DNA of 64,000 nucleotides, counting the filler, from Basidiobolus ranarum (Eukaryota), in the NCBI GenBank assembly GCA_040143965.1. It is 6 parts of 6 records of this genome, joined end to end, with 100 filler letters (N's around TTAATTAATTAA, not from the genome) between each part and the next. Parts side by side here need not be neighbours in the genome. Positions count along the whole stretch, not along the records: positions 1 to 10,689 come from JASJQH010000677.1; 5 more parts are not named here. One strand, written 5' to 3'. Of the stretch, positions 3,340-47,534 are shown one piece after another. Positions within the stretch are counted from its first letter, which is position 1. Each line of letters begins with the position of its first letter. The notes beneath the pieces were generated by a model, which saw only the letters and a program-made list of their open reading frames with translations, had not been told where the DNA came from and searched no databases. Position numbers and translations under genes: made by a program.

Positions 3340-3712
3340 ATCACGTGAACGGTTAGAAGATGAGGCTGAGTGATACGCAAACATCATCAAAGAAGGATCC
3401 AGAATTAATGCAGTGCAAGAGGAATCATCTCAACGGTCCACGTAAACATCTACAAATGCGATGAAATCAGCTAATTAACTTTCAATCAATGATGCATATC
3501 ATGACTCATGTGACCACATGCTACGTAATGTTAAGCCATAATTTACCTTGAAAAGAAGGTATCTACGACTTGCACCTGTGATGAACAGAAGTGAGACGAA
3601 ATTGGAACTAAATCCAGAATACGTAAACTAAAATGGTGACATTTTCCGTAGCCAACCTTAGAGGTGCCTCAATGGTTTCATCATGATTTTTTGGAAGAAA
3701 AGTATAAAGGGG
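3340..3712 (+). promoter_or_regulatory. Putative promoter of the Stf2-like gene with E-box, AP-1 site, TATA and STRE-like element
   Basis: TCACGTGA at 3341, ATGACTCAT at 3501, TATAAA at 3703, AGGGG at 3708. Confidence 0.4.
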
Positions 3713-3794
3713 CGAATGGGCCCGATCAATTCACTCAATCATCCTTCTAACAAGTATCTCCCAACAATCTATCACCGCACATCACTTCATTAAC

Positions 3795-4007
3795 ATGACT
3801 CCTCCCGAAAAAAAGAATACCGAACAGAGCAACCACGACCGCCATCTCTCTCGCAACGGTGCCCCCGTTGATCCTAAGTCTTTGAAGAAACAGGGTGCTG
3901 GCCGTGGCAACTGGGGATCCTATGAAGACGAAATCGAAGATGCCCTACATGATCCATCTGGTGAACAGAAGAACCCTAGCAAAATCAATGTTGTTCGTAA
4001 AGATTAA
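3795..4007 (+). CDS. Small hydrophilic Stf2/Tma10-like (HABP4/PAI-RBP1-like motif) protein, 70 aa
   Basis: Motif DRHLSRNG...KKQGAGRGNWGS..DEIED resembles the yeast Stf2/Tma10 KKxGxGxGNWG motif. TATAAA at 3703. Confidence 0.8.
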   Translation: MTPPEKKNTEQSNHDRHLSRNGAPVDPKSLKKQGAGRGNWGSYEDEIEDALHDPSGEQKNPSKINVVRKD

Positions 4008-5451
4008 GTTGAGCAGTCACAAAGTAATTGTAAACTCTTGTAAAAAGATCAACTTCGCGTCACATCCCTTTCACTTATGTGTACATTGAAGAAGTATTTG
4101 AACAGACTGTTAATTGAGTTATAATAAAATTATGTTCTACAGATTAGACCATTGCCAACGTTCACTTGATTACGTAGCTTGCCATTGGCAGTCATCATTA
4201 AAAACACTGGCAACTACGATGACGTGGTTATCTTAAAAGAGAGAGGAAGATATGCAGAATTGTTAAGAAAAAGTATGAAAGCCTTATAACTAATGTGCTC
4301 TCCCAGGATATGCCACCAGATTGACAATGTAACAGTCATTAGTTTTGGATATCTTCTGAACCCGGAGTTTAAACAATATTGATGAATGCTATCCATCCTA
4401 TAGCTTCATGGATTAAAGGAAGTCTTAATCTCTGGCAAATTTTGATCTATGCCACTTTCACAAAACAAGCAGAGATTATGACCGGACTTACGCAAAATTG
4501 TTGTTGGGCCTTTCAACTCAAAGCTATCGATAAAATTTGATCTCCATATTTGGCTTAACTTCATGTGTAAAATTAAATCTCAATATATACATGTATTTAA
4601 TTCTGTCGGAAAGATGTGTGATATTAGCTGTACGCTGCATCCAGACAAACACGCCAAAGTCCATTGAATTAGGGATAGGGCAAGTACGCTTGCATGACAA
4701 TACATGAAGTATATCTATACTACTGATATCAGCGTTCTGGTTTTGCAAATAGCACTTCTCGAATATTGAGTTACATCGTACGAAATAAATTTAGATTAAT
4801 TTCAGCATCAATTGATATTCGAGCTAGAGGAGCGATTGGCCCTATACGAGAACAATTCACAAGGCGGTAAAAGTAATTTCATGTAGTTGCATAAGAATAA
4901 ATGAAACAGGTTCTGTAAGTTTTCCGGTTCATAAATTAACGCCATGGGGTTAGTGTGTAGAACATATGCTCTACTATGGAGCATGTTAAAATTACTCAGT
5001 ACGATGCCGACCTAACCGTGTACTACATTAGCTAACAACTTTTCTACTTGTAAAAGAAAGTGTGTATTACACGGAGTTATAAGGAATATTAAGACCAGGT
5101 TTAAGCTTCACTAGAATTACCTTTCTCCTTCCGCGGCGAAACCATTTACAGAGGGCTGATAAATAATTAAATTCTCATATTTCTTCAGTAATCTCAAAAT
5201 ACTAAATAATACTGCAGTGCCAAATGAATCGCTTCTCTTGATATCTTGTATTTTTATTGATTCTTCAGAGTCTTAGTGCGACTAAGTGTGACCTTGAGTT
5301 GACTAATTAGTACAGTGAGGGAAATCCAAGATTTTCCGTGAATTCATATAAAAAGGACTTTCGAGTTTTCAAGGAACGACAGTTTCTACTAAGCAAGTCT
5401 TCTATCCTATCTCTTGAAGAGAATATTCTTTTACTTCTTATTATTTAAAAA

Positions 5452-6266
5452 ATGATCAGCATAAAATTACTTGGTACTGCTCTTACTGCCATGATGGTGC
5501 TCACCACTGTAACTGAAGCTCACTCATGGGTTGACTGTTTGGATTGGAGATTCAAGAACCCCTCAAAAAAGAGCTTTGACGATAATGCCGGCGATTGTTA
5601 CGGCTTTGCTCGTCGCTTCCCCGTGAAGCAAAAGGGTGGCAAATATATCGGCCCGTACGCCTTTGGCTCACTCGACTCTACTGCTGGTAGTCGTCACTAT
5701 AAGCAAGGTGAAAAAAGTCCCGGTATGTTAAAATTCCATTACATTAATAGTGATTGGATTCACCTTACGTTGACCTCTAGTAAAGCAATCTAACCATCAA
5801 TTTCCTTCCAACGATAGATTCCTGGCCTGCCTGTTCTACTGGAAAACGTTTTGGCAATGATGAAGAAATAGGTACTGACGAGACTCGTGCAAGTCCCATT
5901 ACTAAAGCTTATGGTAACAAGTGGGGTCCTATGACCGTTGCTAAGGCTGGACAACAGCTTTGTGTCCGTTGGCCCGCCAAGAATCACAAGAACGAGCCAA
6001 ATAACATTGTCTATATCAACATGTCTCCTTCTCCTCTCTCAAAGGATCCTACCCAAAAAGAATTAAACAAGTGGAACATTGCTAAACTTCAATTTGGCAA
6101 CTGCTTCTCGGGTGGATCGGATAAGGCACGTTGTGGTGGCTGCTTCACCGTCCCTAAAGATCGTAAGCCTGGAGACTACCTCATTCAATGGAGATGGATG
6201 CTTAAGGGCGATGACGGCAGAGGTGAATGGTACACTTCTTGCTCCGATGTTAAAGTCACCAAATAA
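5452..6266 (+). CDS. Secreted Cys-rich protein with N-terminal His, candidate LPMO-like/His-brace copper protein (paralog A, 239 aa; exons 5452-5722, 5818-6266)
   Basis: Signal peptide ends TEA|HSWVDC. Intron gtatgt...acgatag (5723-5817) joins the two ORFs in frame. Motifs WPAKNH, GDYLIQWRW, EWYTSCSDV; 8 Cys. Confidence 0.85.
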
Positions 6267-7291
6267 GCAGTTTGCTGCATCAATAATGGTTGTTGAATAC
6301 CTCTAGGCATTTAATTATTTTTTTGATTTCGAGTAGTCGGATTTGCATTCACATTCTCCCTTTGTCACATTAGCTTTTATTTAGTTTAATCTTAATTAGT
6401 AATTATTGAATTGGCAACTCCTCGATGAGGTATCACTTTATTGGAAGTTGAATAATTCGAATCAATATCAATCCAACGATGTGGCGAAATAAATGGTTAC
6501 CAACAAAGGAATAATTCTCCATCAGTCTCTTGACCTAACTGCAAGTAATCTCCTTTTTTTTCCTGTTATGACCATGATTGGCCAAACATGGGTAGTTAAT
6601 TACTCGATATGGCCAATCATTGAAATACTTGTTTACATACTGGCGGGGATAGTTCAGCCTACATATGGTGCTGCGATATGCAGGGCAAACAATATAGATT
6701 ATAGTTGGGGGCTTTAGAACGCTCGAGGAATGAGTATAGATTTGTAAACCCATCATTCATGTAGAAACCCAAACGATCTTAAAATATAGGCTAAAATATG
6801 TCGAATATGGATATACTCGTCTCACGTTACTTATGTGATGCTGATTCATGAATTCGAGAGTGACATGGGATTTGATTTTGAGCAAGAGAGAATTTCTATT
6901 GTGGCACTAGAAATGCTAGCTATACTTTAGCCAAAAGATGCGAGTAGTGAGCAATTGGACTTTTATATATCTACTTAGTAATTGAACTCGAACATATTTG
7001 ACAACGGACTTCATATCATACCGCTAACCCTCTTCAATACGAGAAAAAATACTTGAGAAAATTAAGTGTTGTTAGAAACTATTTTTTATTGCGACATAGA
7101 GATCAACTCAGTAATACAGTGAATATATCTTGCAGAATAACTGATGTAGAAATATAACATATACTTACGAATATTGAACAAACGAAAACTCGGGAAATAT
7201 GTAAAGTGATTTAGCGATGGATGAATATGTAATAGAACCAAGCAAAATTTGTGGATTAAACATCAAGCAGCTTATTCTCCATTATCTCCTC

Positions 7292-8502
7292 CTAATAGTT
7301 TACATTGCGACGAAGATTATACTGCGGGCGTTGTGCCATATAGGAGCGTTTGAAGTTACTATTGTCGTCATCTCCTTCATCACCATTGTCACCTCGACCG
7401 CCATGGTTATTACCCCTGTTGTTGCGATTTCTCCTACCACCATGGCGATTTCCTCTATCATCGTCTTCGGATGGGCGAGATGTAGGTTTTCCACGACGCG
7501 ATTTGGTGGTTGTGGGGGTTTCATCTCCATTATCTTCACCACCTCTAGTGGTAGTAGGGCTAGGAGAATCTCCCTCATCCCCCTTCTCTGTTGGTGTAGG
7601 TGATGGTGTTGATGTGGATGTCGCCTTTCCTCCATTCTTTGATGATGTGGTTGATGGATCTGTGATCACTACGGGACTATCGCCGCCTTTGCCACCACTG
7701 ATTCGAACATCCGAGCAGGATGTGTACCACTCGGGAACATTGTCCGAGCCATTCAATTTCCATCTCCATTGGATCAGGTAGTCTCCGGCACCTCGATTCT
7801 CAGGAATGGTGAAGCAGCCACCACAGCGAGCTTTATCTGAACCTCCAGAGAAGCAGTTGCCATAGTCCAACTTGGCAATGGTCCATTGGTTCAGTTGACG
7901 TTGAGTAGGATCTTGACTCATAGGAGTAGGTGGCATGTTGATGAACACTACATTATTGGGCTCATCTTTGTGGTTCTTGGCCGGCCAGCGAACACACAAT
8001 TGTTGTCCAGCTTTCGCTACTGTCATTGGGCCCCACTTATTCTGTCCGTAGGCTCCATCGATGGGGTTGGCCTTCGTTTCATCCGAGCCAACCTCTTCTC
8101 CTTCTCCTCCTTTGTATGGCTTACCGGTGGAGCAAGCAGGCCAGTCATCTAATGAAAAGTAAAGAAATGTTCAAATAATGTTTGTTAGTTAACCATTCTT
8201 TCAGTTTCCGATCCCCCCCTCATTAGTCACATACCTGGATTCTTCTCTGATTGTTTGTAGTGACGGTTGGGATCTACACTGTCCAAGGAGCCGAATTCGT
8301 ATTTAGGAGAAATTTGGCTACCACTGTACTTAACTGGGAAACGACGGGCATATCCGGCGCAAGAGCCGGCATTGTCATCGAAGCTCTGGCTGCCTCCATT
8401 GAATCTCCAATCCATACAATCAACCCAGGAGTGGGCTTCATTAAGGGCTGGCATCATCACGATGGTTGCCATTGAAGCGAGGATTAGCTTAGCGTTGACC
8501 AT
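7292..8502 (-). CDS. Secreted LPMO-like/His-brace candidate (paralog B, 374 aa; exons 8502-8235, 8148-7292) with disordered C-terminal tail
   Basis: Signal peptide ends NEA|HSWVDC. Intron lies at the same position as in paralog A and the domain motifs are shared. Followed by an S/T/P linker and an R/G/N/D-rich tail. Confidence 0.85.
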
Positions 8503-10689
8503 GTTGATTTTTCTGTTTGTTTAGCTGAGTAGTTCGTCAAGGAAGAGTGTGTAACGGAGTACTATGTAAGATAGTGGTATGTAGTTTTTGACTGTAACGT
8601 AAGATAACCTGTAGCTTGAGTAGTGTTGGATATGGCTGACCAGCGACCTGTTTCCTTAAGAAAGTATGAAAACGTAAACGTTATTTGATGCTCTTACTAT
8701 TAAGAGATACCTACTATATATACGATTTCGACACATGTTGCCGCACTCACAATCTTGATAAAACTCCAATAGATAAGCTTATCGAATAGCAAGAACTATT
8801 GTGTTAGCGCCTTTCAATATCCCCTCATTAAAGAAGTATACAACAGCTTTCTAAATATATTATGTTCCCTGATATCCTGACCGTATCAAACATCAATCAG
8901 ATCTAAATGCCATTGATAGTACCGGTTTTTCACCACCAAAAATGATCCATCAGGTACTCTACTTGGTTGCCACAATCCAATCAATCAGAAGGATTCCTAT
9001 TAAACAATAAATTTTCAATTTAAAAATTCCTAGGAAGCTTTCCTTAATTATCTGTTTTGCTGGTGAATTGTCCATCACCGTACGTCGTCCAAGTTTCTTA
9101 GAAGGACAACCAAAAGTATCTTCATGAACCTCTAACAGGATGCTTGGGCATATCCTGGGGCTCATATTCAGTTCGGGTCACTATTATGAGAATAATATTG
9201 TTGGCTTAACTCTTAATAAACCCATTCTAGTTGGTCATACGGATTTCTAAAAAGCAAACTTAATATAAAGGATCAGAAACATGTTACATAAGCTGGAGGG
9301 CTGATTTGAACATTGGGGGTTTGTTGCTCAGTTTACCAACTTCGGACTGAGATCAATAGAGTAAAAGCTTAATTACCTTTCATGGAAGCGGCCCTATTCC
9401 TAATCCATGTTAGCCTACCAATTCTATCAGGTATAAGAGACATATCGCATATGTGGTCTTAAAACCATTAAATTTGTGTAATGCTTAATTGATTATCGTC
9501 AGCATACCTACATCTAGATTTCAATGGTTAGAGTGCTATTCCACATTCTCTCCATTTCAAGTTTTGTGATACTGAAAATACCTCCAACTAATCTTTTGGC
9601 AAAAAAATACTGCTGTGCCAAATAGGGATTAAGGCATGCTCGTGATTGGTTGAAGAAAGTTCACCTCAATGGCTAATTCCTTGATATTGTGGTGATGGTT
9701 CATGGATTCCGACTTGGTCTGTTGATTGATTCCTCAGAACTCGGATCAGATATATTTGGTATCTCGTACTAGGTCGCCACATTCGACATCGAGTCAGCAG
9801 GCTATTGGAGCCACTACTCTATAAGATGACAACTTGCCATGTGCTCACAACATTGGCATGGATACAATGGACTAATGGAGAATCATCGGGTATAGGAGGC
9901 CAAAGAGATTTGGGAATTTGAATTAAAGGTAAGTACTGACAAGTATATTGTGAAACCCAAGCTTCCCTTTTTCCGACTGCAGTATTTTTAGTGGTTTTCT
10001 TTCAAAGTTCCCTAGCAATTGTGACTTCCTATTACAGTTACTTCTCATGATTTGCATACAGAAATTCGCTCAAAAGTTGATTAACTGATGGGGAATATAG
10101 TAACTGTTGGCAATTTAAATACCCCTATTCTTGCTCAAGGCCTAGTCATCTATTGTTAACCCTACCTTTAAAACTGATAACAAGGGCACAGAAAGAGATA
10201 TTATCTACGGTAATTTCTTAGTTTGGGTTCACTAAGTACATACTATAGGTAAGTGCTTCCCGTATTGCCGTAACGCATGTTGGAATACAGTGTTAGAATC
10301 GTTCCAAAATTATCCAATGGGACTGTAAGTTTTACGATTTAGCACATTGAAGTAATACAATATTCAAGAAAGGCAAGCGAGTAATACTAATAGTAAAGAC
10401 AAACCTATTTTTGTTGCCATCTGGAAATTACTTTGTTTATCCATGACCAAGTAATATGATCAGATTCTTTGTTTGAATGGTGAGTCTCACCGGTAAAGTA
10501 TCTGACTACTGCGTCCATCATGGAACTGATATATAAGTGTTAAAAAGTCTTGCTAGATACACATCAACCTGAATATTCGAATCACTTTCCTGGAACAAGG
10601 TCGCTGGTCAACCATATCCAACACTACTCAAGCTACAGGTTATCTTACGTTACAGTCAAAAACTACATACCACTATCTTGCATAGTACT

Positions 10690-11360: not shown

Positions 11361-13011
<1,651 letters not shown>

Positions 13012-13323
13012 TAGGGGAAGTCGTATATTCCCTGTAGGAAAGTGTGACTTGGAAATTGGGTAGTATATTCTCTAGAAACAAAATTAAAACCTAAGATATG
13101 GGGGTTTGGAGTAATAGAAAATTTACTTGATATGTTTGATCTATCACTGGAAGAGACTATTGATTTTTATGTTCATATTCCGAGTGATCACTTCACCTCA
13201 CCTTTCCAATTTTAGATAACCTGTCAAAATATGGGACATATAGTTTCGGTCTCGACAAATTTATCTTCAAGTTTATTGTAAAATGCCAATTCAGTGGCTG
13301 ATTTTCAAAAGCTCACTCAACGA

Positions 13324-14787
13324 TTAGAGTCGACTTGACAGAGGCTCGAGTGACTTTTCGGCGCGCCTAAGAACCGTAAGCAACCCCTGTGCAGATCCCC
13401 AGCTACTTTGAAAGCCTAATAGAATTTCCAATGTTACTACACAGATGCAGGATACTCGCCAATATTTGTAATCTTACCAAAACCACCGTGTCCATAATTG
13501 TGGCACACAATAACAGGCTTTCCTTTGTATCCTTTGTACAACATTAATACAGGCAATGATTGTACTTGCTAGAAAATCAGTTACTTACTAGCTATCTCAC
13601 TGTCTAGACGAATACCCCCAATTCTAGTAGGCCTAAAGCCAACGCCATGTCTTATAATTTGAAGGTTTTTGATGTCATTATTTTTGGCAAGCGTGGGACA
13701 AAGTAACATGCACCTTTCAATGATTGCGTCTGCGGTCTCTTGATCAGGATTTTCATTCCTACAGATGCATCAGAATAATTCGATTGTCCATAATCAGAGT
13801 GTAAATGTAAATATTACCAATCGCTTGCCTGAGTTGTACCCCCAAGTGTAACTTCCCCATTCTTTCTCGGGATAATGTACGTGATATTATCCCGACCTAA
13901 GATAAATTGAATAATGACATTCTAGGAGTGAGATTCTACAATAAGATATGCTTTACCATGTTTTAAATAAACTTGCTGGATATGAGGAGCACGTACTAGG
14001 ACAACTTGTCCTCGTGTGGGATAGACAGATAAATCTTCAACTCCTCCCAAAGTACGAGCCAACAGGCCCGTACAATTAATGACTGCATGGATATTTTCAT
14101 CAAATGCGTCACTAATATTCTTTAATTTCTTGTTTACAGTCTTCCCACCTAACTTCTCAAATTCACTTAATAGCCACTTCAGGTAATCTGTTGTACTAAT
14201 CGTGGCTAAATAAAATTGATATTAGAAGAAACCAAGACAACAATAGAAGAGAATAACAAACCTGTAGTGTATGTGACGCCATATTCACAATTATCCGGTA
14301 ACTCGTTTTTAGCGAGAACTCTATACTGTGAACAAATTTAGTATGTTGCTTATACTTAATAGAACCCTAATATCCAACTGATATATACATTTGGACAAAA
14401 CTTTGAAAACCAAGGGGTCTCCCATCCTTGAGGTAGTTGTTCCCAGAAATTAGTCTCTTGTGTCATCATCACGCCAGTTTTAGGGTTTTTTGCCAAGTCT
14501 TGGAAAATTCCAAAAGAAATAGCATCGTATTCTATTAAAGCAAACAACCGATGAGTAAGCAAAAATATTAGAAAAGAGGTGAAGAATCACATACGCTGTG
14601 CTGAAATATCATTTGCGGCAGCAACACTACGCCAATGAGCACCTGCCCAAGGACTTGTATAATGCTGATGAAAATCACCGGGAAGATGCTCAGCAAGGAT
14701 AGTAACTTGATAGCCAGCTTTTTGTAAAAGGTAAGCTGAAGTTACTCCCACAACACCAGCACCAATAACTATAACCGAGTTTGACAT
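13324..14787 (-). CDS. DAO: D-amino acid oxidase (FAD-dependent), peroxisomal, multi-exon
   Basis: [13 protein letters not shown] motif, [53 protein letters not shown]-terminus SRL* (PTS1). Confidence 0.93.
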
Positions 14788-17700
14788 TTCTTTTGAATGA
14801 TTTCTAGGCAAGTGTTGAGTTTTTATGGACTACGTATTCGAATGTTAGTTGAGCTCTATGCTCTTCTCAAAAAGGTAACGTCTGAGACAGAAGATTTTAT
14901 AGCAAATCACCTTGGACATGAAGTTAAATACAAATGTAACTCAACGCTATATAGCACAATCAAGTCTCAGTCATGTTTCATTGTGTAATGACCAGTACAA
15001 GATTATGATCAAGAAGTCAGGACTCAGCATTACTCATCTTCCTCAACCGAGCTGTGGCTGATTAATTCTGGCAAATTAGCATATGACTTAATTTCCTTTC
15101 TTATATTGCGATTATCTGGATTTTTGGAAGTGTTAAGGCTAACGAATTGTGATCCTTTGAGTAACTGATGGACCGGAGTTCATAAGCTTCAGACTTACAG
15201 TTTTTTTGATATGGTTATGAATGTATTTCACGAGCGATATAATAATCACTCAATAAATCATCAATTTGTACATTGTACACCAAGCGATATTCACTACAAA
15301 ATAATATCTTTGCTAGTAAGCCATACGAAAGGCTTATTCACTATTTTCGACATAGTGGCACCACTTACGTATATATAGGGCATTACTACAAGTTAATTCG
15401 CTTGAAGAACATCGACCTTACTGGTGATGTTATCCAACTTCAACATTCTGAAAATTTATAAATTCTCCATGGAAATGTTTTCCTATTTCTGAGTCTCTGA
15501 ATACTCATCACGTCTGTAACAAATATATTCGCCCAGAAAAGTTAGTAGAAAAACTCAAAGAGCAAATCTTGACCCGTAAAGAATCACATTTACACTTCTT
15601 CGCATCCAGAACGTGATATCCTTCTGAATGAATTCCCAAAGCCTTCTCTACTGACCGAATCATTTCCTGGTATGCAATCATTCTCCCATATTGCATTCCA
15701 CTCCAGTTAATCCAGTATATCGTATCTTTCGGGACAGTGTGCTATGCTTCTTACCACTTCGATGGAGCCTGAAGCAGGTAAACCTTATAGATTAATGAAT
15801 TAGTTGAGTTCCAGTGAGTTCTTGGAATATAGCATTATTCGGTAAAGAATAATCATTATCTTATCTCACATCTTTGACAGATATACGAGGGCTATCAAAT
15901 TATTGTAACTGCTACTGTGGAAGGTGCTATATTAGGCAGTAATAAAATGGAATTGGAAAGAACGCTACAAAAAGATGAGAAGGATATATAGAAACCCTAT
16001 GTATTTTTTTCAAAGCTAATATACAAATTGCCTTGGAAAAGTTTGATAGATACTTCGATCCTGAACCTCAAGGTGCACCAGACATTTCGAACATGCTGCT
16101 GAGTTCTAGATGAATACAAACAGAAAGCGGATCACCCATGTCGATGATACGGCTAAAAAGTTCATCGCCCCTTTTAGTTAAGGTAGCCTTTTCAAATATC
16201 TAGAGTAGTTGGTACCAATGCCACTGGTCAGAAACCTGAACCCTCCTGCTTAGAAACTAAGTTTTCTATATGATACTGCCCTTGTTTATTAATTCTTATA
16301 TATAGGAAGTTGGTTGGGCTATCTGACGAGGTGAAGAATACTTATTACTTGGGATAGAATAATACTATAGTTTTTTAAGTTTAGCTTGAAGAAAGCATGT
16401 AATTACGGAGAAGTGCTTACGAAATGTTAGATTGTTATCTGTAGCTTTAGAAAAATTAAGATTGTTTAAGAAGGCCTCTAACATCACGTCAAAAAGAGTG
16501 GAGATGAAGAGATGAAGGTTTGCCACTCATAACCTTTGAATTATCAGAATGCTTCAAAATATACTATACAACAAAAAGTGGTGTCAATATCACTTCAGAT
16601 GCGCTACTGGTTGGCCCTTTCTTGCGACCCGTCATCGTGAGCCGGTGTAGCTATTCGTGTAAACGTACACGAAGATATGACAGAAGAGGCAATTGATTGT
16701 TTGCTCAACGATAACATCCATGATATAGCTCATGCATTGAAGCGGAAACCTAGAGAAAATCTATTGGAGCAAAACCTGATGATATGGCAAAATTAGAGTC
16801 TACCATGCTAATGATTTGTAAATATATATGTGTGTACTTTTGTTGATGTTCCGCCTTAATAACAGTGAATCGATAGTTTTTTCATCATGATATGAATAAC
16901 ATTGCAACTGCAAATCAACAACATCTATTTATCGATTGCCAATATCCACTGTCTTGAGTAGGACATCTATTTTCAATTATAAAGCAGTTTTATGATTAAC
17001 CAATAACCCAATTTAGATTTCAACTCTAAATCACCACCATCATGGCCTAGATGTTCAGTATCAGAATGGAGTCTTCCTTCCAATCGGATGATTTTCTTGA
17101 AGACTATTTGCAAATAATCATGGTGGAGACTTATGGACTAACGATTAACAACCATCGGATTTGACTCGAACTCCTATCCGCCACTTAACCTTTTGCCATC
17201 TACTCGTGATTATATCGCGTATGTAGATCCTATAGATCCGCGCTGAAATCAAGCAACTGTGTGAATCGATAGAAAAATTAGTATCACGGGGTAAACACGT
17301 GCAGCCCATGCTAAAAGTAATTCCATTACTCCATTTAACTTAGACCTGCACTATTAGATCGATGGTTTTCGTGGCTGTCTGGATAATGCTGCTATTCTGT
17401 GTAACTTAGCCTGATTATTACCAACTAGCCCTTGTCTGTCAATTCAGAAAGAGTGTAATGAACAACAAGCGAAACACTCAATAACATCATTAGCTCATAT
17501 TCACTCTATATATCATTGTCTTGATATACAGCACCTGGAAAATTCATAGCATCATGAAAGTACACTTCTACCTTCATTTCAGACACCTCCAAGGATATAA
17601 TGAAATGGCATTAGAAAGAGAACTTTCTTAGTGAACGTAGCTCTTCTATTCTCAATCATTGGTGATTTATTGAATCATCACCATAAAGACAGAAAAATGA

Positions 17701-18865
17701 GGGAACGTGCTCTGTAGTACTATACACGTGGTTAATGCAAGAAGTCGTATACAATATCAATATGGAAAGCAGCACGCAGAAATGGAGGTAAAATCTACGG
17801 CACGAACTAACCAAAGAAATCAACCATCTTCTATTAGAAAATCTATAGTAAGCGGATGTTTGGAATGCCAAAAATAAGATATCCATTCACTGGTTAGAAT
17901 TTCCATTAGTTTCATGGGTAATATCCATGTTGGGATACCAAACAAATAAATCTACTGGATAGCATTTATTGCTCTAAATAACCCGTACACCTCCAGCTTG
18001 GTAATTTCCCATTAATCCACATCATTTGAAGGGTTGGGAATTTGTATTGACTATCCTACTCCAGCTAAATACGATGTAAGATGCAACATATAATTGAGGG
18101 GATTTAAGGATTGTCTATTATCATCCAATAGAAATCTAGGAGCTATAATGCAGGATAAATCGACTTATCATCGAATTCTGATTTCAAGCCCTCGTAATTG
18201 GACGCCTCTTCTCACCAGTGAGGATAGCGGCCTCGACTCACCATCTCTGATTGACGTGTGGTTTCTATTAGTTTGGTTCTTTACTAGCGACTTTAGGATT
18301 ATTTCTTTCACCTTGATATTTGTATTTCACTCGTTGAACTTGTAACTTGCCTTGGTAGTTCTAGTACAAACCCTTCAATGCATAAAATTCTCGCAACATG
18401 TCAGCTCTAACTAGTTGAAGATAAAATCCCACTTAGCCAGATAAGATAACTCTCAGATCACGGAAAAACAATACCGAGAAACACTATTGGGCTTTTGAGC
18501 AAAACGTGCTCGTATATAAATAAATGCCATCTTATTATACAAAAGAATAGTGCATTATTTCCGTTTTCGACTTGAAAAGGATATCTTCCTATAGGTAGAG
18601 ATCACTTTTATCAGCTACTTTATATCGTAATTGGCTATGGTTTATAATCAAGTGTATGGATCCATGAATGATTTCCATTAGAAACTGCAAGGTTCAGGCA
18701 CAGCCCGGTAATAGATTTAGCAGTTTGGAAGCTTAGCTAATGTAAATTCGAAGCCAGTTCATTAATCGATCATTTTAGTTCCAGTGACACTTGAGATTTT
18801 TTACTTAAATAGAACGTTCAAGTCTTCATTTTTTGCGATCATTTTTAGATATAGACATTTTTGTT

Positions 18866-20257
18866 ATGAAGTTCAACAATTATTCAGCGCCCCTGTCTCG
18901 CGATCTTCACAGTAATAATAATACCATTAGTTTTGTCTCTCAACCTAATTTCCCCTCAAATACTCCTAAACAAGAGAACAGACAAACAATGAATGTCAAG
19001 GACCCAGCTCAAGAAGAGGGCAATGGTAACCCTGGCCATTCGAGCTCCGACGGCTCAGAAGGATGGTCAAGCAGTAATGAAAAACGGCCCAGATTTGTAC
19101 CACCTTCTTCAAAGAAACCGTGTAGACGCCAAAAGTCTTCTACTCCGGGATCTGATGTATCAGATGGACTGCGGTGCTCCAATTGCCAAACTACTACAAC
19201 TCCTCTTTGGCGTCGTAACCCTCAAGACGGTGAACCATTATGTAATGCCTGTGGTCTATTCCTCAAACTCCATGGTATAGTTCGCCCACTCAGTTTAAAA
19301 AGCAATGTCATCAAGAAGAGGAACAGGAATCCAATTGGTACAATGGCTAAATTTGGCCGCCACACCGGATTAGTTTTTGGTACAGTTGCTAGTAATCGTG
19401 GTGCTGGATGTGAAGGTGTACTATTATTTGAGCCTTTTGATAATTCAGCTGAGTCAAATTCCAAGATATCACAAAGGTTACCAAATAATATCCCCACTTT
19501 AGAAACCTCGCCCATCAATCCCTCTATCCCATCTTCCCCATTGAAGTTCATTACTCACTCCAGTAACAAATTCTCTAGTTCACATTATGAAAAACCCACA
19601 AATTTAGCAGAAGAAAGAAATCGCGAGTCATCTACCTCATCATCAGAGTTTCTTTCAGAAAGCGTCGAAAATCACTCGTTACCAAGTGTGATACATCCCA
19701 ATTCATATGTCGATAATGTATCGTCAGCTCAAAATTCAGAATTAGCATATCATAACTCATACCCGGTCTCAACTAACCATATGACAAGTATGCTCGGATC
19801 TACCTCTGCCCCTACCTCCCAAAGTATGGTCGACCCATTTAGTTGGCGCGCAACCTCACACGACCATACCACTACAACTATGTCTCTACCCCACGAAGCT
19901 AACCATGTCCAATGCCCAACTGAGCAGCTACCAAGCTATTCTTGTACAAATATACCTATGCCATATTCTCCCGTCACGTTTAACTCGCTGCTCCCTATGG
20001 TATCGATGAGTCAGATGGAGCCTCACTCAAATTTTACCCCTACCATTCGCGCGATTAGTTCGAACTTCGAACTCAATCATAGTCACCAGACAAGCCCAGA
20101 GAGTTTTGTCTCACAGGAATTCCCTGGACCTACACCATCTGCCAGCTATATGTGCTCACTGAATCAGGAATGGCAACCATGGAGCACGGACCGCAATCAT
20201 CTTCCAGCCTTCTCCATGGAGCCTACACCTATTCCCGACTATTCATCTACATCTTAG
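18866..20257 (+). CDS. GATA zinc-finger transcription factor, AreA/Nit2/Gat1-like finger
   Basis: [51 protein letters not shown] within a long Ser/Pro-rich ORF. First ATG at 18866. Confidence 0.92.
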
Positions 20258-23079: not shown

Positions 23080-25872
23080 TCATGTGGGGACTTGAATGAG
23101 TTCATCCTCCTGAGCAAGAGCTTGGAACCAGTATATCAAATAGTCGAGAGGGCGAGTGCGTGGTTGCTCATGGTCTTGTGTAGAGTGATGCTCAGGATAC
23201 CACGTCATGGCTGTACCGTTGGCGGTACTTATTTCTCTAACTTTATGGCCAATCATAGGCTGTTGCAAGAACATAGTTGTTACAATACCTAGTATATAAA
23301 CAACTAAAGTATATAGTATCACTGTAATAGTACCATATCCACGCGTTCTAGATACCAAAGCGGTGTTGTGAGAACTCGAGATTGCCACTTCGTTCACCTG
23401 CTTGGAAAGTGTGATTACAGATTCACGGCGACGGCGTACTAAATTTTGTCGCAGTTCTGAATTTCGATGTTGAGTCTTTGTTGAGCCATCGAATGTTTGT
23501 GATACCTGACCAGAGTTGGCTGGATCAGAAAGTAATTCATGTATTAGGGTTTCTTGGGCCTTGAAGTTATCAATCAATTTCCGATATTCCATTTCGAGAT
23601 TTTGGTGAAATTCATCCTTGTACTTCGCGTCCACTTCACACTCCATAGATTCTCCTGATAACTTGCTTTGTGCTTTGCTCTTATGCGAGTCATTCGTTGG
23701 AAGTTCATCCTTATAGTCGCACTGAATTCCAATTTCTTGAGTAAAAGAGGGTTTTATGTTCTCTCGTAGATGATTGATCTCCTCTTGGAGGCATTGTCTT
23801 TCATGGGCTATAGCTTTCTTTGCTTCTTGAAGTTGGTAAACCGCATTCTCCCATTTTCTAGAAGCGTCTTCAGCTTCGGTTCTGAAAAGTTTATTTTGAT
23901 CCTCTAAGTATGCTATATAGCTGTGATTTTGATCATGTAACTCGAAGTGATTGTTAAGTTCCAAAGCAGGTAGAATACGATTTTCGTCATCCAGAGAGTC
24001 TAAGTATATTCCGTTACATTGATCTTCCAGCATGGATGTTAGTTCGAAGTGGAGGTTCTTTTCACTTTCTACGCTAGAAATATCTTCTATATTTTTCATT
24101 GTGGTGCTTCCTGTTTTAATATTGACTCCTTTGATGGCGTCATCTAAGTCTTGTCGCAAGCGATCTACAACATCCCTGAGATGTTGGTTTTCTTCTTTCA
24201 ATTCGTCAACTTCCAGTTCAAGAGTTTGAGCGAACGATACTTCTTGCTCTAGCTTCGAGATATGAATTTCAAATGCTGAGCGTTCTTGTTGGTATCTCCT
24301 TTGCTCTATTACATAGTTCTCTAGATCCATCTCGCCTTTCAAGAGTTCTTCTTCCCTAATTTTCAATTGAAGCTGGAGTTTCTCAGTTTCCTCTCTCTTC
24401 TCCTCATACTGTTGACGCAGGTCACTATATAAATTTTTATGATGAGAGAGAACCCTAGATATTGAGACAATCTCAATTTCCAACTGAGCATTGATTTCAA
24501 ACAAGATGGTTAGCCATTATCGAGAGGTGATTTTTAGGATAAAAAGACAGTTGTAATACCAAAGAGATCTGCTGTAAGTGGGCCTTTTCGTTGCTTTTAA
24601 ATTCTTGAATTTCACGTTTCTTAGTCGTCAATTCCAGCTTCATCTCATCAACACGAGTCTGAAGCTCTGAAATTCGCTCCTCGTGTTGACGAACTGAGAG
24701 TGTGAGGTTTTTCTCAGTCTGACGAAGTCTCTTATTCAGCTCCAAGGAGATACGACTTAAATTTCCGATTTGTGATGCGGCTTCTTTAGACTAGTTAAAT
24801 GGCATTTAATTATATACAGTGGATAAGTTGAATAATATCTAGTCACACTTACATCGATGTCAAAGTCTTCAAAGCTTTTCTCCAAAAAATAGGTGTTAGA
24901 TAGGTTTTTGTCGCGCGATTCGACAGAACTGCGACTATGCTTCAGAGGTTCTTTGGAGAATCTAGGAGATACCTAGAAAATTGTTGTTAATTGATGAGGC
25001 TTAAATTCCTGATGAAATTGAATAAAGTGTATGATCATTTACCTCTTGATAAGAATGAGGTGAACTATTTGATCTACCAAAACTCCGATCGGCCGAGTAT
25101 TTGAACAAGTAAGTGTCTTCGTCGTCAAAATCATCAAAGTTTGGGACTGCATAGGCGTCTCGTCTCTTATCTACGTCTGTGTAATAAAGGAGGGAATGTG
25201 TTACTATTGATTAAAATGGGGTTACAATAACGATAAAGAACTCACCAGCTGCAGCTTTACGAGTTGATAATGTTCGTGTGACCGGGGTTGTTCGTTGTCG
25301 AGAGGCAAGCGGCGAAAGAGGGTGAGTAAACCCTAAGGTAGAGTGAGGCCTCGGGGTGGTGGGAGGACGACTATTTTTTACTGAAGTCTTGGGTAAGGCA
25401 GTAGAAGTAGGAGAAGGAGCTGATAGTTGAGAAATAAGCCGATATAGATCTTGGGGAGAGAGTTCTAGTTCCGCATTCTTGGCACAGAATTTTTGTAATA
25501 AGTCCTTGGGCTCCAAGTCTAAAAGGGCTACTCCCTGCTCCCGCTCAAAGAAGTCTAATATAGGAAACAAGTCCTGAGCTATAATAGAACCACGGTTGTC
25601 TCTATCAAATTTGGCGAATATAGCTTCCAAGTTAGAGTGAAGGGTAGAGAGTGTACTGGTGGAATCAGTCTAATATTTTTAGATATGTTGTTAGTGATGC
25701 GGGAAATAATTGTAGATATATATATAATTCAATAAGCTGGCAAAGAGTAGTTTAGAAGAACTTGCAATCGAGATGTACATGTTCTAAACTTTTATCGTTG
25801 CTCCTACACGAACACCCTCATTACCTTGCTTTTTATTTTTGCCTCAACATTTCCGAGTCGAGCAGTTGACAT
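23080..25872 (-). CDS. EF-hand / long coiled-coil / C-terminal TM protein, KASH5/Kms1-like nuclear envelope candidate, multi-exon
   Basis: Exon 1 MSTARLGNVEAKIKSK (25872-25825) splices in phase 0 to 25669. EF-hand-like FAKFDRDNRGSI, coiled-coil-like exons, TM ITVILYTLVVYILGIVTTMFL, C-terminus ...LIQVPT*. Confidence 0.75.
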
Positions 25873-27601: not shown

Positions 27602-30600
27602 ATGTTTACCTTTCCAACTCCTTGCGAAGGTTCCTCTTTTTGGGAGGATTTAGCTAGTAACGAATACTTTGTGACTCAACGTGCTCTGGGTTCCAACAAT
27701 TTTTTATTAAAGAGTGTACTGGGAACCATTCAAAATGTGTAAGTTGGATGCAGTTTATGTTCATTTTGGTATCTCTTTGTGTTTCAACTCAAGTTGTGTA
27801 TATTTTGTGTAGTCTGGAGACAAAACAAGCACCTTTCCGTATCTTATTTCGACCCAACAAAAATGGAGAAGGTATGCATCTCATTGCTGAATCAAATACT
27901 CGCGAAGGGATTGAGAAACCATGGAAGTGGCTTGAAGGTAACCTCAATGTTTAGCAAGTAATCGCTCTAGAAAGAATAACCGCTTAAATCCCTTCATATG
28001 TTTGCTAGATCACCTTGTCAAAGAACTGGCAGCATTGGACGATCCGTATGAAAAAGAAACATTTGTGTTAACCAAAGTTAATTCTCTAGTGTCAAGTTTA
28101 GATGCAGGAGATGATTCAGCTAGTGACGAGAATATGAGGGCTGCCACAAGAGCTTTCAGGCAGACATTTGGTTTGCCTACTAGTGAAAGATTGGTGAATT
28201 TCTATTCGTGTGGATACAATCGAAACTTCATGATCAATCAAGGGTGGATGTATATAAGTGAGCATTATCTGTGCTTCTATTCGTTCATTCTCGGAATTGA
28301 AGCGAAAATTCAAATCTCATTAAGAGAAATTGATAGTTTACACAAGGAAACCTCAAAGAGAGGATTATTAGCTGATTCGGTCAAAGTTATTACAAGAGAT
28401 AAAAAAGAGGTATGCTCCACATAACATCCGATGAAGCCATGGCAGTTAGCGCACTAATGTGAATTCACCATGATTTATATTCCTTCTTGTAGCATTTCTT
28501 CTCCAATCTATTTTGTCGGGATGAGGTATGTTAAAGTTACTACGTTAGTCCGTCACTTGTCAACTAATTGCTGTACTAGACTTACGACCTCTTAGTCCAG
28601 CTGACCAACTTGTCAATGCAAAAACTGTTGCAAAACTCAGCGATGGATTTCGCACCTGGTTTATCGTTAGAAGCTCATTCCTCTACAGAATCTTTAAAAG
28701 ACTCCTCAAGCATTACTAAAAGATCCCGTTTCTCCATTCAGAAGTCAGAAGCTCAATTTCACAAAATTTCCTTGAAAGAGGACCTACAGCAACAAAAACG
28801 GAATGACCAATTTCAGGCAAGCTTTCGTCTTCCATCAACAGAACACCTAATTATCGAAGCCGATGCCATCCTCACCGTACCCAATCGTGAGGAGAAATAC
28901 CATGGAAAACTTAGCATATCCGAAAGCTTCATCGCATTTATGTCTACAGACGGTAAATTGTGCTCAATGGCGATCCCTCTATTTGTCATTCGTAGAGTAG
29001 AGAGAATTAATCCACGGTCGCACTTGTGTATATTGGCTCTTACTACTTGGCACCAAATGAAGATCGTATTTCAAATACAAGGATCACGTAAGATAGGAGA
29101 GAGTTACTGCGCTGCACTTAAAACTAATCTTAAAGAACAAACCAAGACTATGAAGATTCTTAAGTCATTCTTGCAGACTTGTGTATCAGAAAGCTTATTA
29201 AAAGACAAGGATGACATCAAATATGGAGGACTTGGGCTGAAGTTTGGATATCCCGTGGACGCGAAGAAATCGAAAGAAAAGGGAAAGAATAAGTACTGGC
29301 TGAGCTATCTTAAAGATAATGGCCGTAACCTCACCTTGCTAAAATACCCCGATTTCTCTCGCCTAGTTAAAATTGGCCTTCCCAACAATCTTCGTGGGGA
29401 AATATGGGAAATATGCAGTGGATCGATTCATTTGAGATGCTTGAATCCAGGCCTTTATCAGACTATACACCATGAAAACGCCGGGAAGGTATCAATATCG
29501 ACTGAAGAGATTGAGAAAGATTTAAACCGCTCTTTACCGGAATATGCCGCTTATCAAACGACAGAAGGAATAGATATATTGAGAAGAGTGTTGACGGCTT
29601 ACTCTTGGAAAGATCCAGCCCTAGGGTATTGCCAGGCCATGAATATTGTGGCATCAGCTATTCTTATATACATGAGCGAAGAACAGGCCTTTTGGACCAT
29701 TAGTGTTCTCTGTGATCGCTTCCTTCCTGGGTACTATAGCACATCTATGTACGGGGCTCTCCTCGATCAATCTATCTTTGAGCATCTAGTCGAGCAATGT
29801 ATACCGGCAATGCACGAACACTTGAAAAAAGCAGACATTCAGCTCTCTGTCGCATGCTTACCTTGGTTTCTCAGTCTTTTCATCAACACCATGCCAATCT
29901 CATTTGCTTTCCGGGTGTTGGATTGTTTCTTCATGGATGGGCCTCACGTGTTATTCCAGATTGCCCTTGCTATTATCAAAATCAACGAGAATGACTTGAT
30001 CAAAGCAAAAGATGATGGGGCATTTATTCACGTGCTCAAACGCTACTTTACTCGGCTGGATGATCCTCTTTATCCAAGTAGCAAGAATCCACGTGCGAAG
30101 CTACTAACCAAGTTCCACGAACTCATGCTAGTAGCGTTCAAGGAATTTGCCAGCATAAACATTGAGTGTATCAGTGAGCTACGCAAATCGCATCAGTTTC
30201 GGATCGTCCATAATATTGAAAGTTTTACCAAGCGAACGCACATTCGTAACCTTATTGAAACGTCAAGGTTCAATAAAGAGGAGCTATCAGTTGTCTATGA
30301 TAAATTCTACGATATCCAATTTTATAGTAACAAAAAGCAAAATGAAAACCCTGATCTCAAAATGAACTTCTGGAATTTTCAAAAGTTTCTAGCCACCATT
30401 ACCCCTTGGGCGCTTCTGGAGACCAGTACCGAATCACAACGCTTACTTAAAGGTCATGCATCGCTATTAGTACAGAAAAAAACCGTGGGCAGCTCATTCA
30501 TTGAGAAGCTCTTCGTGTATTTTGACAAAACTCGATGTGGTAGCCTATCTCTTCAGGATGTAGCCAACGGACTTCAAGGCATAATGTTTGGTGATTTGAT

Positions 30601-31294
30601 GTCGCAGATTCAACTCTTTTTCCACCTTCATGATGCCAACAACGATGGATTGCTATCGAAGGAGGATATATTACAAATGTCGGAGAGTTTTCTATTTCTT
30701 TTCCGGAACGAGAAAGATGACCGGTATCTTCGAGCCGTCTCGAATTTCCTTCAAAATTCAATCCACTATTCGGAATCGGCTTTACATTCGCCCAACCCTA
30801 GTCGAAACATCTTGGAAGTGGTTGATGGTGAAGATGCTCGACCAGACCCCCCAGCCAGATCTGTAGAAAAGGAAGAGGATGGCATCATTGTGTCCTTACC
30901 TACATTCCGAATGGTGATCTTAGCTGATGAAACACTAGAGCAGTTTTTTGATTACAAATTTGCCGCATCCTTCCAGCTGACCATGGATTCTAATACCGAC
31001 AGACAGAAAGGCTTAGGCAGAGAGATTTTCGAGTCACTGCTAAACGAAGGTTTTAAACTTGCTGATCGTGTCGCTCAAGTACCCAAAAGGAAACCAACTC
31101 GAAAGAGCCCCTCTATCAATGACACGTACCCAACTGACACAATCGCACTCACCACAGCACCAGCCCTATCTAAAGATCTGGCCGATGAGGAGGAGAATGA
31201 AGACGACGATCTAACAGCGGTCGACCATCTGCTAAGACAGTTGGACGAACCGCATAAAGAAGATCCAATCGATGATTTTGAACACATTGGTTAG
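27602..31294 (+). CDS. GYP2: GRAM + TBC (Rab GAP) + EF-hand protein, yeast Mdr1/Gyp2 / TBC1D8-9 family, multi-exon
   Basis: Two GRAM-like regions (FGLPTSERLVNFYSC...QGWMYISEHYLCFYS; FRLPSTEHL...GKLSISESFIAF). TBC fingers IEKDLNRS and YCQAMN. EF-hand DANNDGLLSKED. Confidence 0.93.
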
Positions 31295-36614: not shown

Positions 36615-37171
36615 CTTTAGCCACTTACTGAGAAGAATTCCATACTCTTAAGAATTGAGTTCCTACTATTCTATTTTTTTGATGAATTTTAATATGACTG
36701 CAAGTCTATTTAGATAGTAATTATGCTTTACTATCTAAATCTTATAACTAGTATACCCCCAATATAGCATCGCGTCCAAGGTTATGTCCTGGGTTTTTTT
36801 CGGTATTCATTAATTTTTGCATGCTTATCCTTCCGATATTTATTTAATCAAGTCTCTTATGGCACTTCATCTTTCAACTTTCTAATTCATGGAACTCAAT
36901 ACTAAGAATGAACCTTCTTGTTTTATGGCTTATTGGACCAAATTTTTCGATATTTTTGACAATGGTTTTGTTTTGTGAGAATAAAGATGAACAAATTATG
37001 TCTTCAAGTCGAATGTTCAATAGGATTAATACTCAAAGATGATGATAATCTTTTTTAGCAGTTTGTACTTCTATTTAGATTGATTTAATAATTGGCAATG
37101 TTGACCGGAAAGGGTTGTGTAGAGTATAACGAAGACTGTGTTGGAAGAAGTATATACAAAGTGATATACTT

Positions 37172-37681
37172 TCATTCATCGTAGAGAAATTTGTTAACTT
37201 GTTCGGATTCGTGTGCTTCTTCGAATTCCTGAAAGATCTTTTTATTTGTTGAAAAAGAATAAACGTAAGTATCAGGGATAATAGGAAACTCAAAGCTTGT
37301 GTTGAAATGAACAGTTCACTTACCCCGCGAAATTCTCCATCGACAAAAATTTGAGGTAACTCGTTGGTTTTATTCAGATTTTTACGCTTCATGTAGTTTC
37401 TTGCTTTTTCATCGGCGGCGATATCGATGAACTCAAAAGGGATTTTACGAGTGTTTAATATGGATTCAAGTTGTTGTTGTCTATCCTTTATCTAATATGG
37501 AAAGTTACTTCAAATGCTCTAGAGTATTTCTGGCCAAGGGGAGAAATATTCATACCTGCATGTTGCCAGAAATGGAAGAGCCATAAATCTCCACTACCTT
37601 GGTGCGGTCTTCAGGAATCGGCGTTTGGCAAGGGTAATACATTATATCAGCTATCAGAGTAGTCTGGTATTCACTGGGCAT
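37172..37681 (-). CDS. SH3BGR-like / glutaredoxin-fold small protein, 3 exons
   Basis: VEIYGSSISGNMQ|IKDRQQQLESILNTRKIPFEFIDIAADEKARNYM...LPQIFVDGEFRG|IFQEFEEAHESEQVNKFL. No CxxC, as is typical for SH3BGR. Confidence 0.85.
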
Positions 37682-45705: not shown

Positions 45706-46038
45706 ATGCGTTATATTGCTGCCTATCTTCTTCTCACCCTTGGTGGTAACCAAGCCCCTACCTCCGCTGATGTTGAAAAGCTTCTCTCTTCTGTTGGTAT
45801 TGAAGCCGACTCTGAGCGCCTTAGTAAGTTGATCTCTGAATTGGAGGGCAAGAACGTTGAGGAACTTATCGCTGAAGGAAAGAGCAAGCTTGCTTCCGTA
45901 CCTTCCGGTGGTGCTGCCTCTGCTTCATCCAGCGGTGCTGCTGCTGCTGGTGGTGCTGACGCTGCCCCTGCTGCCGCTAAGGAAGAAGAAGCCAAGGAAG
46001 AGTCTGATGACGATATGGGCTTTGGTCTTTTCGACTAA
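45706..46038 (+). CDS. RPP2: 60S acidic ribosomal protein P2 (5' UTR intron 45595-45697)
   Basis: [10 protein letters not shown]...Ala-rich hinge...[13 protein letters not shown]. Confidence 0.98.
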
Positions 46039-46490: not shown

Positions 46491-47534
46491 TTAAGCGCTG
46501 GGTCGATTCTCCTCGACTTTCAAAGTGAACTCATCATTTTCCAAATTCTCCATTTGAGTGTCCACTGGTTGGTAAGTAGCTGGCTTCTTTGAGTCATCAA
46601 GACCGTACATGTAACTGGAGTAAATGACTAGGGATGAGCCAACAATGAAAAGAAGAGTAATATGGAAATCGAATAAATATATAGAGAAGAAGCTGGAAAC
46701 GATAATCGAAATACTGGTAGCGAATCCTTTAAGAATATTATCGGCGTATTTAACCACTATAGCAACAATAATACCTCCACAAGCTTGACAGGCAATGGCC
46801 ATAACAGTGTAGATGTTGTAACCGTACAAAAAGCCGTTAGTTAATACGCTATCTCCGTCCATCCATAAGACGCCCAAAAATAATGCTGGGAATAACGAGA
46901 AAAAGGATAGTTGAATATTGCGCACCCAAAGAGAAGCGCGAGTTCCTTTGAGGATTTTCTCAAAGTATACACCTGCTAAGCCAGAAATAATACAAGCGCA
47001 CACTACAGTAGCTAGACCGAGGAGTTTTTGGTTACGTTTGTCTTCAGTAGTTGAAGTCTTGGTTGGAAATTGAACCAAAACAACACCAACAGTAAGTATC
47101 ACCAAAGCCAGCCACTTCTTCAAGGATAAGCTTCTACGAAGGATGATTACTGTGCAAAGAGCGGTAGTAAGGATTTTAAGTTGGTAAGTGACCTGAAAGG
47201 TAGCAGCATCTAAAAGAGTAACCGCCACATATTGAAGATTATTTTGTAGCGTGTATAGACCAGCAGGAATCATAAGTTTCCAGGCATCTCTACCAAAAAT
47301 TTCAGAAAATAGTTCGCGAGGTTTAACATGCCCTTTGGTGTTCAGTTCATCACGAATATGCATACATAAACAAATGATTAATTTGGCAAGTTCGGATAAT
47401 GTAACGGCGGTAGAAGTAGCATAACGCGGTAGAATGTCTCGAGATTGAGTCATAACAAGTACTAGGGCACTATTTTGAATAACCAGAATGATTAAACTCA
47501 AGTATTTCATGGGAATTTTCTCCAGTAGTGACAT
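46491..47534 (-). CDS. Golgi nucleotide-sugar transporter (UDP-Gal/UDP-GlcNAc; SLC35A/Gms1 family)
   Basis: IPAGLYTLQNNLQY, ATFQVTYQLKILTTA, SGLAGVYFEKILK, VVKYADNILKGFATS; multiple TM segments. Confidence 0.94.
   Translation of the reverse strand: MSLLEKIPMKYLSLIILVIQNSALVLVMTQSRDILPRYATSTAVTLSELAKLIICLCMHIRDELNTKGHVKPRELFSEIFGRDAWKLMIPAGLYTLQNNLQYVAVTLLDAATFQVTYQLKILTTALCTVIILRRSLSLKKWLALVILTVGVVLVQFPTKTSTTEDKRNQKLLGLATVVCACIISGLAGVYFEKILKGTRASLWVRNIQLSFFSLFPALFLGVLWMDGDSVLTNGFLYGYNIYTVMAIACQACGGIIVAIVVKYADNILKGFATSISIIVSSFFSIYLFDFHITLLFIVGSSLVIYSSYMYGLDDSKKPATYQPVDTQMENLENDEFTLKVEENRPSA

Follow-up and report, generated by a model that had tools for sequence, protein, structure and literature searches.

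A convergent gene pair in Basidiobolus ranarum encodes putative histidine-brace proteins of a lytic polysaccharide monooxygenase-like family peripheral to Pfam DUF7492

Do the two adjacent genes at positions 5452-8502 of a stretch of Basidiobolus ranarum DNA encode copper proteins related to the lytic polysaccharide monooxygenases (LPMOs), and do they belong to a recognised auxiliary activity (AA) family? The stretch, hereafter the window, comprises 64,000 nucleotides joined from six records of assembly GCA_040143965.1, and the locus lies in the part derived from JASJQH010000677.1. An original prediction had described the locus as a convergent pair of secreted paralogues with LPMO architecture, a complete histidine-brace signature and no recognisable AA family. 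Our analysis suggests that the two genes, A and B, probably encode secreted paralogues from an uncharacterised family of histidine-brace proteins with an LPMO fold that occurs across eukaryotes, putatively chitin-directed copper proteins. Judging from sequence comparisons, the family appears to lie at the periphery of Pfam DUF7492, with the AA11 chitin LPMOs as its closest characterised relatives.

Gene models were constructed from a list of standard-code open reading frames (ORFs) in window positions 5000-9000, followed by splicing and translation by script. This yielded two convergent two-exon paralogues, gene A on the plus strand and gene B on the minus strand, with products of 239 and 374 amino acids, respectively (Table 1). 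The spliced gene B product is identical, letter for letter, to the B. ranarum hypothetical protein K7432_010153 (P0252), which validates the gene model. The gene A product is 87% identical to K493DRAFT_332704 of Basidiobolus meristosporus (P0001). The two window proteins are identical at 158 of 241 aligned columns, and tblastn searches with the protein of one gene recovered the exons of the other with E values of about 1e-92; no third copy or pseudogene was found by tblastn in the window. Both are phase-1 introns that interrupt the same Asp codon, directly after ...EK(S/N)P. Alignment at the DNA level is confined to the exons (about 73-75% identity) and does not extend into the introns or flanks.

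Both precursors start with a 23-residue leader (gene A, MISIKLLGTALTAMMVLTTVTEA; gene B, MVNAKLILASMATIVMMPALNEA) in which an N-region with Lys precedes about 15 hydrophobic residues and a terminal EA; HSWVDC follows directly. The sequences WPAKNH, RHY, GDYLIQWRW and EWYTSCSDV are present in both proteins, as are eight cysteines in each mature domain. The paired arrangement, leaders, motifs, cysteines and intron position listed in the original prediction are thus all seen in the spliced genes and their translations. Counting from the predicted mature N-terminal histidine (His1; gene A numbering), the candidate axial Tyr lies 205 residues downstream and the second His 123 residues downstream.

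Residue conservation was examined in a close-homologue alignment (A1) of 50 sequences from Basidiobolus and Mortierellaceae. H82 (RHY), H147 (WPAKNH), E227, Y229 and seven of the eight cysteines are invariant in this alignment, and H24 and the eighth cysteine (C29) are nearly invariant. A profile search against 1.84 billion cluster representatives (50%-identity clusters) returned 465 matches at E <= 1e-3, of which 218 had E <= 1e-10 and 46 had E <= 1e-30. Conservation among distant relatives was counted in the 149 top-ranking representatives first retrieved by the profile search, using as denominators the aligned stretches that cover each column. His1, whose loss in homologues had been named as grounds for abandoning the prediction, is kept in 111/112 of them. 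The WPAKNH His is kept in 137/137 and the Cys three residues past the Tyr in 131/131, while the candidate axial residue is Tyr in 129/131 and Phe in the other two. The Glu before the Tyr is found in 80/133, with Gln (16), Asp (11) and Ser (7) the next most common residues. Furthermore, an H[ST][WFY]..C motif is present in 111 of the 149 representatives, and its His falls at precursor position 13-36 in 101 of these 111, as predicted for an N-terminal His that is exposed by signal-peptide cleavage.

These counts separate the two histidines that had been put forward as the second brace ligand. The RHY His is invariant in the 50 fungal-clade sequences but is kept in only 40/77 aligned stretches of the distant representatives. 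On these alignments it is a fungal-clade feature and not a general brace candidate, and it may act as a clade-specific second-sphere or extra metal ligand. The second brace His is therefore predicted, from conservation, to be the WPAKNH His; this half of the earlier suggestion stands and the RHY half does not.

Structures were predicted with AlphaFold, using P0001 as a stand-in for gene A (folded with a 50-sequence alignment) and P0252 for gene B (folded with a 78-sequence alignment). The P0001 model has a mean predicted local distance difference test score (pLDDT) of 85.1 and a predicted template modelling score of 0.83. For P0252, pLDDT was taken by ten-residue blocks; blocks over residues 21-240 have values of 86-98, and those of the tail (residues 241-374) have values of 34-52 and no secondary structure. 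Foldseek searches of the PDB returned proteins annotated as LPMO, GH61 or CBM33 in 38 of the 39 rows shown for P0001 (best E 4.5e-6) and in 37 of the 37 rows shown for P0252 (best E 6.4e-6). The LPMO matches of both models belong to AA9, AA10 and AA11, and the sole exception, for P0001, was the Magnaporthe effector NIS1 (8xgl; rank 50, template modelling score (TM) by target 0.66). A structure search with the Atlas's own model of P0252 retrieved bacterial LPMO_10 clusters (TM 0.55-0.57). The models and their matches point to an LPMO beta-sandwich, in line with the architecture originally proposed, and suggest that the LPMO core is shared and that much of the N-terminal loop region is new.

To relate the pair to named families, the four exon products of the window and 11 close homologues were scanned with Pfam at E <= 1, with cut-offs of 27.8 bits for AA9 (PF03443), 23 for LPMO_10 (PF03067) and 27 for DUF7492 (PF24320). 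The only family above its cut-off in these sequences was DUF7492, in one paralogue. The DUF7492 cut-off was passed by one of the 11 close homologues and by 7 of 38 distant representatives; the gene B product (22.5 bits), the gene A orthologue P0001 (23.1 bits) and the two exon-2 products (17.5 and 18.1 bits) scored below it. AA9 scored 15.1 and 15.4 bits on the exon-2 products and 13.6-21.5 bits on six of the 11 close homologues, with no match on the other five. LPMO_10 had no match at E <= 1 on the exon products or the close homologues, and two distant relatives reached 17.0-17.3 bits, below its cut-off. The fungal clade (A1) and a distant clade (A3), which has six DUF7492-passing members, were matched by hhalign at 100% probability with an E value of 3.5e-52 over 202 columns, which suggests that the window genes form a divergent branch of the DUF7492 superfamily. 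The A1 profile also retrieves DUF7492-passing proteins at E values of 1e-15 to 1e-22. The Willaertia magna relative P0308 has a precomputed Pfam label, PF27624.1, which may be a recently added model for part of the superfamily.

Searches of the PDB by sequence, with a single sequence and with the clade profile, found nothing significant; matches to glutaminase-asparaginase structures (E 0.03-0.5) were taken as chance. Alignment to AA11, confined to the C-terminal ~50 residues, had E values of 0.011 for gene A exon 2, 0.11-0.14 for the clade profile and, for a broad 71-sequence profile, 1.8e-7 against 4mah, 2.8e-7 against 9exj and 3.1e-5 against 7p3u. The aligned region covers the strands P-x-G-x-Y-T-x-x-W-x-W and E-x-Y-x-x-C. 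The family Tyr aligns with the E-x-Y-x-x-C of solved AA11 structures and with the Q-x-Y of AA9 chains, and we take these tyrosines to be axial copper ligands.

The claim that the pair belongs to an unrecognised AA family holds in part. Relatives of the window proteins already make up DUF7492, and their UniRef automatic names include 'Chitin-binding type-4 domain-containing protein' and one starting 'Lytic polysaccharide m...'. The family is thus already catalogued under names that hint at LPMO likeness, and its recognition is not wholly new. Full-text literature searches found no description of the family; 'DUF7492' occurred in no paper, and 'PF24320' in no paper returned by its full-text search. 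Three candidates from the literature were rejected. AA18, listed in two 2026 papers, is as we read it the CelOCE-type enzyme, with a fold different from that of this family. PxLPMO1 of Podosphaera has a His1/His52 brace and models on X325 and AA11, according to the part of the source available (PMC8035642). The Egh16-like TrsA, proposed as a new LPMO family in the accessible text of PMC12377627, has another domain, and no Egh16 Pfam match was found here.

Named relatives come from Basidiobolus, many Mortierellaceae genera, the heterolobosean amoeba Willaertia magna and the MMETSP marine-protist transcriptomes, and Atlas DUF7492 clusters are commonest in Ascomycota. In prokaryotes, a search with two short motifs (one genome for each of 185,579 species) matched eight stretches, none of them a relative, which is weak evidence of absence. 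CBM_1, a carbohydrate-binding module (CBM), was detected in 2 of 12 proteins scanned, the distant relatives P0246 (41.9 bits) and P0277 (35.8 bits). Their presence favours polysaccharide as the target of at least some family members. Fusions seen among distant members (P0246, P0277, P0092, P0161, P0139, P0118 and P0253) comprise CBM_1, TSP1 with EGF, and a transmembrane segment followed by a WW domain, the last an odd partner for a putative extracellular copper domain.

We propose the following mechanism for the pair. Removal of the 23-residue leader would make His24 residue 1. On one face of a beta-sandwich stapled by disulfides, a single copper would then be held by the amino group and side chain of His24, by the side chain of the WPAKNH His (His147 of A or His149 of B) and by the axial Tyr of the EWYTSC strand (Tyr229 in A, Tyr231 in B). 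What the models and alignments directly support is the fold and the conservation; we infer the geometry, the metal and the activity of A and B. With H2O2 or O2, the reduced copper would bring about oxidation at a glycosidic carbon of some insoluble polysaccharide. Basidiobolus, which can also infect humans, lives in animal guts on material rich in chitin. Given this habitat, the AA11 link and the CBM_1 fusions elsewhere in the family, chitin is by analogy the most likely substrate, in the fungus's own wall or in arthropod or fungal remains. The 134-residue disordered tail of gene B may serve in tethering or metal binding.

Several observations weigh against this interpretation. Residue -3 of the gene B leader is Asn, which is unusual for a signal cleavage site. 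No named LPMO Pfam model reached its cut-off on the window exon products or the 11 close homologues, and the likeness to solved LPMOs is moderate (TM 0.3-0.56, by target at most 0.55-0.56; rmsd 4-11 Å). Neither A nor B has a CBM, and for these two proteins the chitin assignment comes solely from AA11 affinity and the ecology of the organism. Among distant relatives, a crude hydrophobicity rule identified a C-terminal membrane-anchor-like stretch in 15 of 66 full-length proteins, and some have a WW domain at the C-terminal end. Such anchors and WW domains fit cell-surface roles other than biomass degradation.

The anchored relatives and the missing CBM would both suit histidine-brace copper binders that are not polysaccharide oxidases and instead take part in copper handling or redox reactions at the surface or wall of the cell, in the manner of X325/Bim1-like proteins, a role that we consider unlikely for A and B. 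According to the accessible part of a review (PMC13353379), the presence of a histidine brace is no predictor of polysaccharide oxidation. An Atlas cluster with BIM1-like_dom in 36% of its members was also found (feature scores 0.84-0.86; TM 0.50 by query), to be read as a lead only. However, BIM1-like_dom (PF20238) had no match at E <= 1 on the four exon products or the 11 close homologues, and neither A nor B ends in a hydrophobic segment resembling a glycosylphosphatidylinositol (GPI) signal. The axial Tyr and the preceding Glu/Gln/Asp are retained, as in catalytic AA9 and AA11, and the CBM_1 fusions lie within the family.

The AA11 alignment raises a second alternative, that the pair are divergent members of AA11 which Pfam does not model and that there is no new family. 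AA11 structures provide the sole significant sequence link to a characterised family. In the portions of the sources available to us, AA11 is described as enriched in Zoopagomycota and Mortierellomycotina, lineages where this family abounds, by a secretome study (PMC9391592), and as expanded in Kickxellomycotina by another study (PMC9866270). We nevertheless judge AA11 membership distinctly unlikely, as the ~50 C-terminal residues align whereas the N-terminal 170 do not, the proteins have eight cysteines and a long Cys-rich insert, and Foldseek places AA10 and AA9 chains above AA11 chains. The His1-to-Tyr distance of 205 residues also exceeds that of AoAA11, which we take to be about 139. The NIS1 match could be taken to indicate metal-free glycan-binding or effector-like proteins that keep an LPMO-derived beta-sandwich, but this is highly improbable given that every better structural match is an LPMO and that His1, the second His and the Tyr are near-invariant in very distant eukaryotes, which is hard to explain without a metal site.

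Extending the proposal of a copper-binding LPMO-fold family, it is possible, although we put it forward tentatively, that this is an ancient eukaryote-wide LPMO family that merits its own AA number and is defined by an H-S-W-x-x-C N-terminus, W-P-A-K-N-H and E-x-Y-x-x-C. Its members would be secreted in Basidiobolus and Mortierellaceae, CBM1-tagged in marine protists, and elsewhere transmembrane with a C-terminal WW domain, presumably cytoplasmic. One copper site would then serve both polysaccharide oxidation and cell-surface redox or copper sensing, and the Arg/Asn/His/Gly/Asp tail of gene B would be a second, regulatory metal-binding or wall-tethering element.

The pairing of short and long forms is also found in B. 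meristosporus, where the locus tags of a short form (332704) and a long form (332705) follow each other on a contig of 267 kb and a second short/long pair lies together on a 36.6-kb contig. A maximum-likelihood tree was reconstructed for 16 rows from the first 240-245 residues, with five Mortierellaceae rows as outgroup. All Basidiobolus copies fell in a single clade (support 99/99), with an A-type clade (99/98) and a B-type clade (96/95). Both species are present in each of these clades, which suggests that the A/B duplication predates the split of the two species. Between A and B, nonsynonymous divergence (dN) is 0.23 and synonymous divergence (dS) is saturated, so that dN/dS is not computable. 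These values suggest that the duplication is old, with both copies still intact, and, together with the retention of A and B types in two species, argue that both copies are functional. The predicted family expansion is borne out by several paralogues in Basidiobolus and dozens in Mortierellaceae.

The tails that follow the S/T/P/G linker differ strongly among the long-form paralogues (gene B, P0245, P0065 and P0279). Those of gene B and its B. meristosporus orthologue are of mixed Arg/Asn/His/Gly composition and then Asp-rich, with FKRSY, YNLRRN and dibasic sites in common. The tail of P0065 is an almost pure Asp/Glu run, and that of P0279 is Lys/His-rich. Many Mortierellaceae members have, after a variable linker, a conserved C-terminal peptide, G-x-S-T-S-V/I-F-A-E/D/Q-L-A/S/T-E-D, which resembles a sorting or attachment signal and is not present in the Basidiobolus copies.

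Pfam annotation of the neighbouring genes revealed no chitinase or redox-partner cluster. Some DAO-family enzymes produce H2O2, but nothing here connects the nearby exons of an oxidoreductase of that family with genes A and B. From 18809 to 61708 the window contains genes of housekeeping type (Table 1).

Table 1. Positions of the gene pair and of other features in the window.
Feature	Position	Strand	Evidence or remarks
Gene A exon 1	5452-5722	+	Cys-rich N-terminal loops including RHY; sequence, splicing, 87% identity to P0001
Gene A leader, 23 residues	5452-5520	+	
Gene A His24, predicted mature His1	codon 5521-5523	+	
Gene A RHY His (P0001 residue 82)	5695-5697	+	
Gene A intron, 95 nt	5723-5817	+	GT..AG, phase 1, inside Asp91 codon; position matches gene B intron
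Gene A exon 2, including stop	5818-6266	+	WPAKNH, GDYLIQWRW strand, EWYTSC; sequence, conservation, sub-threshold DUF7492/AA9, AA11 C-terminal alignment
Gene A WPAKNH His147	codon 5985-5987	+	
Gene A EWYTSC Tyr229	codon 6231-6233	+	
Intergenic spacer, 1,025 bp	6267-7291	.	34% G+C, between convergent 3' ends; no ORF with a relative found
Gene B exon 1	8502-8235	-	Sequence; spliced product identical to P0252
Gene B leader, 23 residues	8502-8434	-	
Gene B His24, predicted mature His1	codon 8433-8431	-	
Gene B intron, 86 nt	8234-8149	-	GT..AG, phase 1, inside Asp90 codon
Gene B exon 2, including stop	8148-7292	-	Sequence, P0252 identity, AlphaFold blocks
Gene B His149	codon 7972-7970	-	
Gene B Tyr231	codon 7726-7724	-	
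Gene B low-complexity tail, 134 residues	7696-7295	-	Rich in G, T, R, D, S, N, P
ORF with HABP4_PAI-RBP1 match (Stm1-like mRNA-binding)	3708-4007	+	28.4 bits
NAD-dependent sugar-nucleotide dehydratase/epimerase exons	11521-13071	-	GDP_Man_Dehyd 88.6 bits, Epimerase 72.1 bits
FAD-dependent oxidoreductase exons, DAO family	13922-14829	-	PF01266 32.5 + 36.4 bits; about 5.4 kb from gene B
GATA zinc-finger protein	18809-20257		
Long ORF without Pfam match	23080-24516	-	
GRAM + RabGAP-TBC + EF-hand protein	27942-31294		
Glutaredoxin/SH3BGR-like protein	37075-37491		
60S acidic ribosomal protein	45676-46038		
Nucleotide-sugar transporter	46491-47561		
Long ORF without Pfam match	58844-61708	+	

To our knowledge, every new LPMO family so far has added a novel substrate or a novel biological role, if not both. 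The family described here is large, with at least 465 clusters at 50% identity, and its range includes fungi, a heterolobosean amoeba and marine protists. The window pair offers a minimal predicted catalytic domain (A) beside a domain with a tail (B). If activity on chitin or the fungal wall were confirmed, it would matter for nutrition, for remodelling of the wall and for interaction with the host, and a histidine-brace site in membrane-anchored relatives with a C-terminal WW domain would, if real, be an unusual setting.

Compared with known systems, the family resembles X325/Bim1-like proteins (PF20238) in that these, too, have an LPMO fold and a histidine brace and are secreted or located at the surface, and parts of this family appear surface-anchored. 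X325 proteins have an extra Asp ligand and a GPI anchor, as described in the available part of PMC13353379, whereas the window proteins retain the Tyr and have neither a match to the Pfam model nor a GPI-signal-like end. AA10 (PF03067; CBP21 2bem, 5ftz) provides the best structural matches by TM (0.54-0.55 by target). It differs in the LPMO_10 model, which finds no match at E <= 1 in the window exon products or the 11 close homologues, and in the axial residue, which is Tyr in this family and, we assume, commonly Phe in AA10; on the two-motif prokaryote search, this family is also eukaryote-only so far. With AA9 (PF03443) the proteins share the fold, the Q/E-x-Y-x-x-C strand and a sub-threshold match of residues 130-238 to model positions 56-172, which we read as placing WPAKNH near the AA9 second-His loop. 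They lack a second-sphere His close before the Tyr, which is presumably an AA9 feature.

The likeness to AA11 (4mah/4mai AoAA11, 9exj/9hdg AfAA11B and 7p3u) extends to secretion from fungi, a predicted N-terminal His, the LPMO fold and the C-terminal strand pair P-x-G-x-Y-T/L-x-x-W-x-W ... E-x-Y-x-x-C, with a Glu two residues before the Tyr. Unlike AA11, which aligns over those last ~50 residues and not over the N-terminal 170, the window proteins combine eight cysteines, a long Cys-rich loop region and a second His 123 residues past His1, and no X278-type module was seen in them. The AA11 N-terminal motif is, we believe, also other than the HSW..C of this family. Although the window proteins fall below the 27-bit cut-off of DUF7492 (PF24320), they have in common with it the HSW..C N-terminus, WPAKNH and the Y..C motif.

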